Notes: generated from the letters alone by a model not told the origin. Shown: positions 60,532-63,943, counted from the first letter of the stretch. The stretch: DNA of 64,000 nt from a virus (IMGVR_UViG_3300021255_001602:64001-128000); one strand, 5' to 3'. Made by a program: numbers and translations.

Positions 60532-60599
60532 ACAGGACGCTTTGTTTTGGTTATATAGATTAAAAGTCTATTCCTAAATAATTTTGCTGTAAGCGTCCC
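60532..60599 (-). ncRNA. CAGCAA-module RNA E1 (stand-alone) displaying a Lys(UUU) anticodon stem-loop
   Basis: GGGACGCTT/AAGCGTCCT stem, ACAGCAA, ATAGACTTTTAATCTAT. Confidence 0.8.
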
Positions 60600-60619
60600 A
60601 ATCATACGGAAAGGAGGTG

Positions 60620-60988
60620 TTAATATAATATTTTAAACAAATGAGTCCACCATTCTTCTACGATTTCCCAAATGTTTTCTTTATGTGTTTCTATTAATAT
60701 ATTTTTTGCTGATCTATCAATGTCCTGAAAGCACAATATTGATTCTAAATCTATGAAATCTTTGACTTTGGGGTAAAAGTAATATAAATCTATATCTATT
60801 TCTTTTTTAATTTCATCACACATATAACAATAAGTATCATGAAGAAAAGTCCAGAATGTAAAATCATTTACATAAGCATCCCACTTATTTTTATCTTCCA
60901 TTTCCAGACGCTTCTCGTGCGAATGACTTAACAATTCCTTTGCTTCTTCATAAGTTAATGGTGACTCATCTAACCAATTAATTTTCAT
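60620..60988 (-). CDS. Hypothetical protein
   Basis: 122 aa with AAAGG RBS. Confidence 0.6.
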   Translation of the reverse strand: MKINWLDESPLTYEEAKELLSHSHEKRLEMEDKNKWDAYVNDFTFWTFLHDTYCYMCDEIKKEIDIDLYYFYPKVKDFIDLESILCFQDIDRSAKNILIETHKENIWEIVEEWWTHLFKILY

Positions 60989-61051
60989 TTATTTTACCTT
61001 TTTCGAGTATTTTGTTTTATATTTTTCGTTTTTTTTGTAAGTGTCACATAA

Positions 61052-61168
61052 AAGCGTGGGAGGGATTCGAACCCCCGATGTCATTATAAGAATAGACATA
61101 GATTATTTGCTGTAAAAATCACGGGCATGATTCGTTTTTTCTTCCTTCGACCACTTGGATACCACGCT
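61052..61168 (-). ncRNA. tRNA-like RNA E2 (type II scaffold, anticodon arm replaced by the CAGCAA module)
   Basis: AGCGTGG/CCACGCT; TCCAAGTGGTCGAAGGA; AATCATG/CGTGATT + ACAGCAA; GGGGG-TTCGAAT-CCCTC. Confidence 0.75.
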
Positions 61169-61179
61169 ATAGTTACAAA

Positions 61180-61268
61180 ACAGGATTCGTTATTAGGGAT
61201 TTGAACCCATTCACTCAAATTTTTGCAGAATTTTCATTTATCCATTTTTGTTTTGCTGTGCGAACCCC
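61180..61268 (-). ncRNA. CAGCAA-module RNA E3 (stand-alone) with Cys(GCA) stem-loop and T-arm remnant
   Basis: GGGGTTCG/CGAATCCT; ACAGCAA; AAATT-CTGCAAA-AATTT; GGG-TTCAAAT-CCC. Confidence 0.75.
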
Positions 61269-61272
61269 AGAA

Positions 61273-61389
61273 AGCCGACCTATTGGATTCGAACCAATAA
61301 CCTCGCCATTACCAGTGGAAGAAAATAATTGCTGCTAGGATTACAATCATGATCCATTCATCGTGCTCTACCGTTGAGCTAAGGTCGGC
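61273..61389 (-). ncRNA. tRNA-Thr(GGT)-like RNA E4 with a 43-nt module inserted in the anticodon stem
   Basis: GCCGACCT/AGGTCGGC; CG[43 nt]CCA-CTGGTAA-TGGCG; insert holds GGATCAT/GTAATCC + GCAGCAA. Confidence 0.8.
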
Positions 61390-61392
61390 ATA

Positions 61393-61480
61393 AGGGAGCA
61401 GTAAAGATTCGAACTTTAAAAGTATTTTGCAGAACTCAATCACTTTACATGATTGACGCTATCCCTAGCGATCTGCCCCC
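61393..61480 (-). ncRNA. tRNA-like RNA E5 with module hairpin at the anticodon position
   Basis: GGGGGCAG/CTGCTCCC; CGCT/AGCG D arm; TCAATCAT/GTGATTGA + TCTGCAA; TAAAG-TTCGAAT-CTTTA. Confidence 0.7.
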
Positions 61481-61492
61481 GTGTTAATTATT

Positions 61493-61557
61493 ACAGGACA
61501 CTGTTAAGAGAAAGAAGATTTCAAGTCTTGTTCTGTTAAGTTTGCTGTAAGTGTCCC
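61493..61557 (-). ncRNA. CAGCAA-module RNA E6 (stand-alone) with Ser(UGA) stem-loop
   Basis: GGGACACT/AGTGTCCT; ACAGCAA; AAGA-CTTGAAA-TCTT. Confidence 0.78.
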
Positions 61558-61641
61558 TTGGAAAGTTTTATACATCATATAGATGTAAGTGCGTATTTTA
61601 ATACAAAACAGTCATGCTTTCCGTTCATCTCTGTTTTGTAG

Positions 61642-61730
61642 TAGCTCCGGTCGGAGTCGAACCGACACTCCAATCATTAATGGAATCAGATTTTAAGTCT
61701 GACGCGTTCTGCCTATTTCGCCACGGAGCC
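61642..61730 (-). tRNA. tRNA-Leu(TAA)
   Basis: GGCTCCG/CGGAGCT; TCAGA-CTTAAAA-TCTGA; long variable arm. Confidence 0.92.
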
Positions 61731-61800
61731 ATATATTTAATTCAGGTTATTGTTCCACTATCAACTACTTACAGAGTCCTCTTACTCAAGCCTGAATTAA

Positions 61801-61873
61801 TCGGAGTGACAGGATTTGAACCTGCGGCCTCATAGACCCAAACCATGCGTTCTACCAGCTGAACTACACCCCG
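61801..61873 (-). tRNA. tRNA-Pro(TGG)
   Basis: CGGGGTG/CACTCCG; CATGG-TTTGGGT-CTATG. Confidence 0.92.
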
Positions 61874-61884
61874 ATTTTACTTAT

Positions 61885-62140
61885 TGAATGGCGGGTATAC
61901 GCCTGACCGATGCTGGCACCAGTCACCTTGAATTGCCTATGCCATTACTAGATAGGCTCACGTTCCCTAATCTTGTGTGCGATTGCTGTGCATGCGTCAC
62001 GATCATGACGCATTCATTTACTTTTGTCTCAGTACTCTGTGCCTACTCAAAAGTAAACGTGTCCTTTCTCAGGACAAATGAATGGAATATATAGCGTCCA
62101 TCGGCGCTTATGATACAGGTTTTAAGTGTCTGTATCCACT
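61885..62140 (-). ncRNA. Larger multi-hairpin RNA E7 containing the CAGCAA module
   Basis: ATGCGTCATG/CGTGACGCAT + GC + ACAGCAA; extra stems CATTCATTT/AAATGAATG, TTTACTTTTG/CAAAAGTAAA, TGACTGGTGC/GCATCGGTCA; boundaries uncertain. Confidence 0.55.
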
Positions 62141-62147
62141 ATATGAA

Positions 62148-63656
62148 TTATCTGACCGTAATCGGTTCATATCGTTTTGCGTTGACAACCTGCATTACAA
62201 AATCCATAGGACTCATACCAATTGCGCCAATTAGATTCTTGAATGTACCCGCAGACTGACCACTTACAAGAATAACTCCCTTGCGATTCTTATCTGCGTG
62301 GAATACGTCATGACGGCTCTCGACATTCCAAAAGATAACAGAGGGAATCTCATAACCATTTCTAGCAAATTCGCTCCTCATCTGATCATAGAACGTCCAA
62401 TTTTCACCACCACAATAATCAAATTCCATATCAGAAATGATAACCAATGCCTTAGGCATATCTTCCTGAGGAATATGATACTGAATAGCCGTATCAAGAA
62501 TCATTTCAAAAGCAGCCTTACAATTGGTACTGCCACTCCAATTATGATAATTAATATTATTAAGAATCTGTTTCAGTGTCTTTCCCTTAATCTGCTGATA
62601 AGAAGGATTAGAACTGAAATTCATCCACAAATTCTTGAATGCCCCATGATTCCTTTGAGCAAAATAGATTGCCAGACTAACAGCTGTATCCATTGGTCTG
62701 CCCATCATAGAACCGGAAGTGTCTGCAATAACAATTGCGTTAGTGCCTTCATTTACATAATTAGGAAGCTGATCCCACTGTGCCTGAAGAACATTCTCTT
62801 CTGTTTCATTCAGAAGATTTCCAGAATAGTAGTTCGCGTTCCAACAATTATGAGATGAATACTTACTAATAATGTCATACGGATACAACGTACTGGAATT
62901 AATTTTCACTTCTCCAGTGACCGCTTTCTGCGCAAACTGGTTGAAGCGCTCTTCGTCATGCTTCTTAAAAGCATTTCTGTAAATCATCATGGCTCTGGAA
63001 GGAACTTCGGAGTACTTAATTTCATCCCAACGTCCAGTAGACATAAGTGCCTCTACGATACCAATCTGCTTACGCATCGCACGCACGATTCTCTTGAAAT
63101 TATATACATCATATCCAAGTTTCTGTGCGGTCAGAATGCCAAGAGCACGAGTTTTGTCTGAAGAAGCATCTGCGGTCTTAATCCATTTAGCCAGAAGAGA
63201 GATAGCGTTTCCTTTAGCCATATTAGCGAGGTCTTCCTCAAACTGTTTCTTCATGGCTACCCACATTTCATTTTCAAGAGGAGTGCCGACCAGTTCATAC
63301 AAATCATCATATCGACCATAAACACCAATCAGGTCAAGATTAGGACGGATTACCTCAGGATGGTATTTAGCGCAATATTTCAGAATAACCCTGAATACTT
63401 TGCGTTCTCCAAGACCAGATGTCTCTTCATCACCACGGATATCTCTTGCGTAAAAGAGAATTTTTGTGGCAATAAGAGGATTTGCCTTATATGCTTCCTC
63501 AAAAAGTGTGGTGATACGTGTTTCATCTGCATTTCTGAGAGCACCAATTGTACCGAACAAATCGAGCAGTGCATCACTTGTTGTGTTCAATGCAACAGCA
63601 CCATTTTCAGTACGTGTCCATTTCTGTTCCTGTTTCATAGCTTCTGCAAAATTCAT
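62148..63656 (-). CDS. TROVE/Ro60-like helical-ring + vWA protein (DUF2828-type)
   Basis: TENGAVA...LLDLFG, FYARDIRG..GLGERK, LLAKW, YSEVPSRAM, C-terminal IADTSGSM MIDAS motif, ISDMEFD, FWNV; ATG at 63656 with AAAGGAG RBS. Confidence 0.85.
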   Translation of the reverse strand: MNFAEAMKQEQKWTRTENGAVALNTTSDALLDLFGTIGALRNADETRITTLFEEAYKANPLIATKILFYARDIRGDEETSGLGERKVFRVILKYCAKYHPEVIRPNLDLIGVYGRYDDLYELVGTPLENEMWVAMKKQFEEDLANMAKGNAISLLAKWIKTADASSDKTRALGILTAQKLGYDVYNFKRIVRAMRKQIGIVEALMSTGRWDEIKYSEVPSRAMMIYRNAFKKHDEERFNQFAQKAVTGEVKINSSTLYPYDIISKYSSHNCWNANYYSGNLLNETEENVLQAQWDQLPNYVNEGTNAIVIADTSGSMMGRPMDTAVSLAIYFAQRNHGAFKNLWMNFSSNPSYQQIKGKTLKQILNNINYHNWSGSTNCKAAFEMILDTAIQYHIPQEDMPKALVIISDMEFDYCGGENWTFYDQMRSEFARNGYEIPSVIFWNVESRHDVFHADKNRKGVILVSGQSAGTFKNLIGAIGMSPMDFVMQVVNAKRYEPITVR

Positions 63657-63674
63657 CTTTTTATCTCCTTTTTT

Positions 63675-63755
63675 CATGACACCGTATTGGGGATTCAACG
63701 CCCCTAGTTTTTTTGTAGTTGAATTATTTTCTTGTTACTTTGCTGTGTGTGTCAC
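63675..63755 (-). ncRNA. CAGCAA-module RNA E8 (stand-alone) abutting the RBS of the TROVE-like gene
   Basis: GTGACAC/GTGTCAT; ACAGCAA; GGGG-CGTTGAAT-CCCC T-arm-like hairpin. Confidence 0.7.
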
Positions 63756-63758
63756 AGA

Positions 63759-63884
63759 ATCGTATGGAATGGATTCGAACCACTGACCCGCTGACCCATA
63801 ACTTGAATGTTTCGCTGTCATAATCACGAACATGATTAATGAATTCTTTTTTCAGCTGCTCTCCCAACTGAGCTACCATACGAT
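63759..63884 (-). ncRNA. tRNA-like RNA E9 with anticodon loop replaced by a 57-nt module
   Basis: ATCGTATGG/CCATACGAT; AGCTCAGTTGGGAGAGC; GCTGA[57 nt]TCAGC; AATCATG/CGTGATT + ACAGCGAA; AGTGG-TTCGAAT-CCATT. Confidence 0.8.
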
Positions 63885-63886
63885 AT

Positions 63887-63943
63887 TCAGGACTCGTTAT
63901 TTTCTTTGATCCGCTATCAAAATAATTTTGCTGTATGAGTCCC
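63887..63943 (-). ncRNA. CAGCAA-module RNA E10 (stand-alone)
   Basis: GGGACTC/GAGTCCT; ACAGCAA; inner hairpin TTTGAT-AGCGG-ATCAAA. Confidence 0.75.

Follow-up and report, generated by a model that had tools for sequence, protein, structure and literature searches.

The window analyzed here is a 64,000-nucleotide (nt) stretch of a 140.5-kb virus record, IMGVR_UViG_3300021255_001602, of which it forms bases 64001 to 128000. The sequencing runs containing this DNA come from bovine and other animal guts, pointing to a cattle-gut phage, and the record carries bacterial-type tRNAs and ribosome-binding sites. Toward the end of the window, a tRNA island holds ten copies (E1 to E10) of a small module, all on the minus strand, together with a gene for a protein with DUF2828 and DUF7788 (vWA) domains (Table 1). 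Each copy combines a short helix, made of strands A and B, with a core motif, most often ACAGCAA, that follows strand A.

Reading the reverse complement and running a regular-expression scan, we recovered the same ten copies, in two circularly permuted topologies, that had been described in a sequence-only reading of this DNA, and the strand A and strand B sequences agreed copy by copy. In the stand-alone form (E1, E3, E6, E8, and E10), strand A opens the RNA as G(G/U)GAnnn and is followed by two bases, ACAGCAA, a cargo, and strand B, nnnUC(C/A)U-G, at the 3′ end. The ends of these copies read GGGA...TCCTG in E1, E6, and E10, GGGG...TCCTG in E3, and GTGA...TCATG in E8. In the embedded form (E2, E4, E5, E7, and E9), the 3′ strand comes first, then a G and three or four loop nucleotides, the 5′ strand, and the core. 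The sequence of E2, E5, E7, and E9 is TCATG-loop-GTGA; that of E4 is TCATG-ATT-GTAA and includes a C.A mismatch at pair 3.

All ten window copies have G.U at pair 1; at pair 2, four have G-C and six have U-A. Counted from the first G of strand A, the core begins at a distance of 9 nt in eight copies, 10 nt in E5, and 11 nt in E7, exactly the register noted before. Seven of the ten cores are ACAGCAA without change; E4 has GCAGCAA, E9 has ACAGCGA, and E5 has UCUGCAA. The pattern GKGA-N5-ACAGCAA, with at most one mismatch, had seven matches in the window, all on the minus strand and all inside the same 3.4 kb, against 1.7 expected from shuffles, and none of 100 shuffles reached seven. A scan of the whole 140.5-kb genome found modules confined to one region of about 3.5 kb, with an 11th copy starting at window coordinate 64061, 61 nt past the window end, and having its 3′ strand at 63970-63978. 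In minimum-free-energy folds, the helix formed and ACAGCAA was unpaired in all five stand-alone copies and in four of the five embedded ones; E4 folded otherwise. A degenerate module start, GTGACACTTACAAAAAA, was also seen at 61030-61047 on the minus strand, where the 5′ strand is good, the core has degenerated into consecutive A residues, and a 3′ strand is not evident; it lies just upstream of a 122-amino-acid (aa) open reading frame (ORF) at 60620-60988 that has no Pfam match.

Table 1. The DUF2828 gene and the module copies, in window coordinates. R1 and R2 are covariance models of the stand-alone and embedded forms; RF01414 is the Rfam family of dictyostelid Class I RNA. pLDDT, predicted local distance difference test score.
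Feature	Coordinates	Strand	First G of strand A	Sequence and remarks	Model score (bits)	RF01414 (bits)	Minimum-energy fold
DUF2828 + DUF7788 (vWA) gene, 502 aa	62148..63656	-		Pfam; AlphaFold model, pLDDT 80; between module copies
E1, stand-alone	60533..60599	-	60599	GGGACGC helix, UU, ACAGCAA, cargo hairpin, GCGUCCU-G	R1 51.6	23.4	helix present
E2, loop-capped	61104..61135	-	61122	AAUCAU-GCCC-GUGAUU, UUU, ACAGCAA	R2 32.1		supports
E3, stand-alone	61181..61268	-	61268	GGGGUUC...GAAUCCU-G	R1 25.8		supports
E4, loop-capped	61326..61357	-	61344	core GCAGCAA; C.A at pair 3	R2 32.9		helix absent
E5, variant embedded	61424..61457	-	61443	hairpin CAAUCAUG-UAAA-GUGAUUG; core UCUGCAA degenerate; register 10
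E6, stand-alone	61494..61557	-	61557	GGGACAC...GUGUCCU-G	R1 44.2	24.6	supports
E7, loop-capped	61980..62013	-	62000	GCGUCAU-GAUC-GUGACGC; register 11; conserved in related loci L001, L002, L004
E8, stand-alone	63675..63755	-	63755	GUGACAC...GUGUCAU-G; T-arm-like hairpin	R1 30.8		supports
E9, loop-capped	63809..63840	-	63827	core ACAGCGA	R2 30.1		supports
E10, stand-alone	63888..63943	-	63943	GGGACUC...GAGUCCU-G; directly 5′ of E9 host	R1 42.7	21.4	supports
11th copy, stand-alone, 3′ part	63970..64000	-		AGCGUCCU-G; 5′ strand GGGACGC and core GCAGCAA beyond window; whole-genome scan

The stretches joined to these modules largely resemble parts of tRNAs. The 17-nt cargo hairpin of E1 is identical to the anticodon arm of the tRNA-Lys(UUU) that the phage itself encodes at 59640-59715; E6 carries an anticodon-type arm with the loop CUUGAAA (UGA), and E3 carries another (loop CUGCAAA) plus a T-arm-like hairpin. 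Among the embedded copies, E2 sits in a tRNA-like gene (61053-61168) in which the acceptor, D, and T arms are present and a standard anticodon arm is missing, while the E5 hairpin occupies the anticodon-arm position of a tRNA-like gene at 61393-61480. The host of E9 is a complete cloverleaf (63760-63882; Rfam tRNA alignment, 47 bits) in which 57 nt take the place of the 7-nt anticodon loop. E4 is inserted into a tRNA-Thr(GGU) (host, 61273-61389), within the 5′ strand of its anticodon stem, and removing about 43 nt restores a CGCCA/UGGCG arm. E7 instead lies at the 5′ side of a conserved, multihairpin, non-tRNA RNA of about 130 nt (61885-62016, minus strand), closed by UGAAUG/CAUUCA and located between the DUF2828 stop codon and tRNA-Pro. 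A further, long tRNA-like gene of the island (60073-60202, minus strand) has acceptor, D, and T arms of normal form separated by about 78 nt; it lacks ACAGCAA, and neither ARAGORN nor Rfam called it.

The sequence-only reading had proposed that pair 2 covaries between G-C and U-A. Both states are present, but within the window they largely follow topology, so the ten copies hold little independent covariation, and we therefore sought proof in related loci. Searching viral contigs with the window protein and then with an alignment yielded 92 nonredundant loci at 28 to 90% protein identity. In 93 loci, the gene strand carried 419 exact ACAGCAA motifs and the opposite strand carried 43. A loose scan, allowing one core mismatch and requiring 6 bp, gave many chance matches (180 in shuffles) and was tightened to an exact core. 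The resulting strict module, defined by the exact core, at least 6 bp counted from pair 1, and the flanking G, had 207 stand-alone and 64 embedded occurrences on the gene strand, compared with 6 and 1, respectively, on the opposite strand.

Covariance models of the stand-alone (R1) and embedded (R2) forms, built on seed alignments and run on the 92 loci, gave 175 and 99 matches, respectively, at the E-value threshold, within 4 to 6 kb of the gene, and every one of them was on the gene strand. In the stand-alone alignment, 99.1% of cells were paired, against 74.9% in shuffles, and the covariation score was 0.744 against 0.236; the corresponding values for the embedded form were 96.2% against 61.5% and 0.951 against 0.284. 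All seven pairs changed on both sides in each form, and none of 500 shuffles matched the observed paired share or covariation score of either. Fitted alignments lean toward the model, and shuffles take no account of kinship; slid-partner controls and leave-one-out tests address both points. With slid partners, pairing fell to 26 to 47% (stand-alone) and 32 to 52% (embedded). For the leave-one-out test, six pairs set the partner and the seventh was scored, which frees the result from pairing-selection bias; each pair was canonical in 77 to 96% of distinct copies, against 45 to 73% in shuffles, in both topologies. Anchoring the partner on five pairs had proved too noisy, with many ambiguous partners, and was dropped in favor of this test. 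The G after strand B, when not required, was present in 80 to 84% of copies of both forms, so that strand B is followed by a conserved G both where this G is the last base of the RNA and where it is the first base of the capping loop. The expanded alignment thus bears out covariation at all seven pairs in both forms, above the shuffled and slid controls alike, and both topologies are conserved beyond this phage.

Across the family, the helix is 7 bp long and is followed by unpaired nucleotides at position 8 (U) and position 9 (A or U); the ACAGCAA core is nearly invariant. The spacer between helix and core is two unpaired nucleotides in 181 stand-alone copies, with each other spacing accounting for 9 to 32 copies; among embedded copies, 50 of 56 have this spacer, so the register described for the window is fixed family-wide. 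The helix sequence varies: distant loci use stems such as AAGAC/GUCUU, ACGA/UCGU, GAGA/UCUC, and UAGG/CCUA, and among 138 distinct stand-alone copies pair 1 is A-U in 59, G.U in 30, U-A in 28, and G-C in 17. A first pair that is always G-U, as had been claimed, is therefore a property of this lineage and not of the family. Two DUF2828 loci, L008 and L009 (e.g., L009:7482, 7704, and 8520), combine the helix and flanking G of the module with UCAGCAA or GCAGCAA as the core, from which we conclude that the first core base is not essential. Neither E5 nor E7 was recovered by R2 at an E value of ≤0.05; E5 was kept as a variant on the identity of its hairpin sequence, and E7, whose 4-nt spacing class occurs five times in the family, was kept on its conservation in relatives.

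The strand bias, compensatory pairs, fixed spacing, and conserved G, found in both forms, mean that the module's function at the RNA level, in two connectivities, is strongly supported, in agreement with the preference of the sequence-only reading for RNA function over DNA repeats. The motif is short, repeated, and clustered, much as recombination sites, protein-binding sites, or promoters acting in DNA would be, but a complete strand bias, compensatory changes that keep the helix in two arrangements, and G.U pairs, which work only in RNA, leave an explanation at the DNA level with almost no probability.

The tRNA resemblance of the joined sequences also extends to the related loci. Scoring an anticodon-arm-like hairpin as a stem of at least 4 bp with a YU-NNN-R-N heptaloop, we found one in 58 of 138 stand-alone cargoes, against 6 expected from shuffles; the commonest heptaloop triplets were UUU (16), UGA (11), GUU (5), and GCA (5). 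Among 92 embedded copies, 64 lay inside a tRNA frame, that is, a T arm with a 7-bp acceptor. The insert interrupts the anticodon stem, within its 5′ strand, in 20 of these 64, 15 of them at the site used by E4 (2 bp upstream plus 3 bp local), and 28 of the 64 have no recoverable anticodon loop. Taken together, the stand-alone and embedded cargoes indicate two designs, one with the module attached to the lower half of a tRNA and one with it attached to the tRNA body.

The shared site in E4 and 15 distinct related tRNAs, where removal of the insert restores a canonical arm, is what one would expect if embedded copies were a novel type of short tRNA intron or of insert that can be removed, stand-alone copies were its excised or decayed products, and the helix and ACAGCAA marked the cut sites. 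Such an intron could hardly serve the 28 tRNA-framed hosts that have no recoverable anticodon loop, or E9, in which the insert stands in place of the loop, and the stand-alone copies form separate genes that bring a conserved cargo of their own. The neighborhoods contain no conserved RNA ligase or splicing endonuclease, and RNA contigs contain no joints that skip an insert, which speaks weakly in the same direction. We consider this explanation improbable. Group I tRNA introns were considered and rejected as well: the inserts are 43 to 57 nt long, and RF00028 had no match in the window.

The gene that accompanies the module encodes a protein with a predicted Ro60-like shape. Its best Foldseek matches are Ro60/TROVE proteins, over the full length with a probability of 1.0 and template modeling (TM) scores of 0.4 to 0.6, and they include the Ro60 of Thermus phage phiLo, Xenopus and human Ro60, and Deinococcus Rsr. 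A search of Swiss-Prot models likewise placed Ro60 proteins and Tetrahymena telomerase p80 on top, and the metal ion-dependent adhesion site residues D312, S314, S316, T377, and D409 are invariant. Judged by its predicted structure, the DUF2828/vWA protein is a distant relative in shape that goes under a separate name, and it is not a recognized Ro60 orthologue.

Module and gene are tightly linked and accompany each other in hundreds of phages. In a survey of the neighborhoods of related loci, DUF2828 was the only conserved protein neighbor, with no RNA-repair genes; 77 of the 92 loci have a strict module, 33 of the 92 have both forms, and 66 stand-alone copies lie at most 300 nt upstream of the gene. 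The last stand-alone module often ends 0 to 130 nt before the start codon. In the window, the 3′ G of E8 ends 18 nt before the DUF2828 ATG, with a GGAG ribosome-binding site between them (63657-63675, minus strand). A pattern scan from the RNA side returned 80 loci, of which 46 were chance matches without a module and 34 were real modules; 8 of these 34 had the gene in the stretch examined, and in three of four further records it was elsewhere. DUF2828 itself comprises more than 8,000 metagenome sequence clusters and has a homologue in 696 cultured phage records, with modules flanking the gene in Listeria phage P100, Mycobacterium phage MAckerman, and Escherichia phage nataliec (Felixounavirus). 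In MAckerman (L215:4452-4700), two stand-alone modules stand just downstream of a gene annotated "Ro-like RNA binding protein," whose product is a DUF2828-type homologue (37% identity) and not a canonical TROVE Ro60.

Modules lie between and inside tRNA genes, often a few nucleotides past a tRNA 3′ end, and related islands hold other structured RNAs (ROOL, GOLLD, and drum). One could thus read the module as a processing or stability signal of phage tRNA clusters, recognized by a host RNase or other factor, with the DUF2828 gene just sharing the island. The module tracks that gene, however, across phages of Actinobacteria, Firmicutes, and Proteobacteria, including the tRNA-poor MAckerman, the reverse search from the RNA side leads to the gene, and insertion into tRNA bodies in place of anticodon loops is unlike a spacer signal. 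We regard a processing signal as unlikely, though a somewhat better candidate than an intron.

We instead favor the idea that the module is a protein-binding handle of a particle resembling Ro60 with its Y RNAs and that it probably docks the DUF2828/vWA protein. The DUF2828 protein is the probable partner because of the tight linkage of the handle with a Ro60-shaped gene and because of the Ro60/Y-RNA precedent, in which partner RNAs adjoin the Ro60 gene on the same strand and some of them mimic tRNA (PMC4201824, PMC12135203). The handle would consist of the 7-bp helix, free in sequence and fixed in length, the G just 3′ of strand B, the two unpaired bases, and single-stranded ACAGCAA, and it would dock the protein as Y RNAs dock Ro60. 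If the protein reads only the helix, the flanking G, and the single-stranded core, the connectivity of the chain would be irrelevant to it. In the stand-alone form, the helix would close a small RNA whose cargo is often a mimic of an anticodon arm; in the embedded form, a G-initiated loop of 3 to 5 nt would cap the helix, and the cargo, usually a tRNA body, would bear the ends. Such a particle could display one half of a tRNA or the other to factors of the host or the phage, and the displayed parts might act as a decoy for tRNA-directed nucleases, as a tether for host enzymes, or as a gate. The position of E8 beside the ribosome-binding site may additionally allow feedback on translation of the DUF2828 protein's own mRNA.

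The closest parallel is with Ro60 and the YrlA RNAs of bacteria and phages (Chen et al., 2014; PMC4201824), including Yrl1/2 of Thermus phage phiLo (PMC12135203). The two systems would share a ring-plus-vWA protein fold (predicted here), several small RNAs near the gene and on its strand, a terminal helix as the presumed docking site, and a tRNA-like cargo at the site where anticodon arm and docking helix meet. They differ in that the phage protein belongs to DUF2828/DUF7788 in Pfam and not to TROVE. The Ro-binding motif of Y RNAs is GGUCCGA or GNCGAAN0-1G on the 5′ strand of a bulged terminal stem (PMC4201824), whereas the phage RNA has ACAGCAA beside a regular 7-bp helix and no bulged-stem motif. 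The phage handle also occurs capped by a loop inside real tRNA frames; this design, a handle on a tRNA body, is that of YrlA with the chain break moved. Many of the phage cargoes are bare anticodon arms. RF00019 and RF02553 had no match at an E value of ≤10 in 60500-64000.

Permuted tRNA genes, two-piece transfer-messenger RNA, hammerhead, and twister offer a second parallel, in that one core is found with its chain break at differing places. The phage unit differs from them in being a short, protein-type handle rather than a catalytic core or a whole tRNA, and in that both forms coexist in one genome (in 33 of the 92 loci). Its two connectivities and highly conserved single-stranded core do recall the small self-cleaving ribozymes, a class known for circular permutation. 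Membership in such a ribozyme nevertheless seems very improbable, since no Rfam ribozyme family matched even at an E value of ≤10 and since only one helix and about 10 nt are conserved, with a cargo free in sequence and length, which is too little for a known catalytic core. Ribozymes and group I introns were excluded as candidates on the Rfam results and on the lack of a conserved core.

The only Rfam lead other than tRNA was RF01414, the Class I RNA of dictyostelids (Table 1). Its gathering threshold of 41.5 bits was reached by no window copy, nor was it reached in 12 related loci. The Class I signature is a short terminal stem with a 5′ G, an 11-nt motif (CCUUACAGCAA) adjoining the 5′ strand, and a 3′ CUG(U) (Kjellin et al., 2021; PMC7919456). 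E1 aligns to the family as GGACG-CUUACAGCAA...GCGUCCUG, E6 does likewise, and the features of the signature are present. Shared traits are a length of about 60 nt, a short stem joining the ends, an unpaired (C)CUUACAGCAA after the 5′ strand (E1 and E6 carry CUUACAGCAA exactly), the 3′ CUG(U) tail, a variable interior, and clustered genes. The phage RNA departs from Class I RNA in having a 7-bp helix and one 3′ G rather than 6 bp and UG, in a helix register that is slightly shifted, in a first base that is not always G across the family, and in its phage context with no Dictyostelium upstream sequence element (DUSE) promoter; no embedded form is known among the Class I RNAs.

Class I RNAs have been reported as unique to Dictyostelia, with a protein containing an RNA recognition motif (RRM) as direct partner and an uncharacterized protein, DDB_G0281243, in the pull-down (PMC7919456). 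Members of the DUF2828 family also occur in plants, fungi, protists, and giant-virus bins; the Swiss-Prot fold search with the DUF2828 model returned no Dictyostelium entry. A tentative and rather speculative extension is that the handle and the Class I RNAs are one ancient RNA class, with TROVE-like/vWA proteins of the DUF2828 family as its conserved partner, which would make a second Ro/Y-like lineage running from phages to eukaryotes. The phage tRNA halves, for example the Lys-UUU anticodon arms, would then be displayed as decoys or tethers in conflicts over tRNA.

RNA libraries offer weak evidence of expression. Assembled contigs of rumen metatranscriptomes, drawn from three studies, match portions of the region, among them an exact 252-nt piece (61125-61376), and the E7 host is covered by RNA-library contigs of four runs; a lack of coverage elsewhere carries no information. 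We presume that the modules are transcribed and processed.

Several observations weigh against docking of the DUF2828 protein on such a handle. The protein has no Pfam TROVE match and no sequence match to solved Ro60 structures, its TM scores are only 0.4 to 0.6, and the handle does not contain the Ro-binding motif of known Y RNAs. About 15% of the loci have no strict module in the flanks examined, some of which carry a UCAGCAA core. The RNA-library evidence consists of assembled contigs, which are possibly DNA and show no ends, strand, or levels. Model-fitted alignments lean toward structure, and shuffles ignore relatedness, which inflates the tests. Finally, an RRM protein is reported to bind Dictyostelium Class I RNA directly (PMC7919456), so another protein, perhaps one of the host, could be the reader of ACAGCAA.

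That the helix retains its pairing, its length, and its flanks in both connectivities is strong evidence for a structured RNA read from outside. The docking proposal offers a concrete, testable role for a very large uncharacterized family, DUF2828, and would enlarge the Ro60/Y-RNA idea by another protein family and a novel RNA signature. With one handle apparently grafted onto either half of a tRNA, it also bears on tRNA-targeted defense and counter-defense, and it provides a lead on a 20-year-old question, the role of the Dictyostelium Class I RNAs. The system is present in laboratory phages, namely, Listeria phage P100, Felix O1-like coliphages, and mycobacteriophages. Our literature searches found no paper on DUF2828 function, DUF7788, or the ACAGCAA motif; the present analysis contributes the explicit test of the two topologies.

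Some further observations concern the islands themselves. On a contig labeled as a giant-virus bin (L098, at 157-714 on the minus strand and 9227-9540), three stand-alone modules of the type AAGACAC...GUGUCUU-G each precede a long-arm tRNA, in the company of a group I intron; no DUF2828 gene was found in the stretch examined. ROOL, GOLLD, and drum RNAs share the tRNA/module islands of related phages at L133:5852-6477, L143:7558-8229, L143:12269-12780, and L143:2541-2667. In the tRNA island of the window, a 113-aa ORF at 59034-59375 on the minus strand consists only of the N-terminal Ia domain of an NAD+-dependent DNA ligase (Pfam Nlig-Ia, E value of 2e-29).

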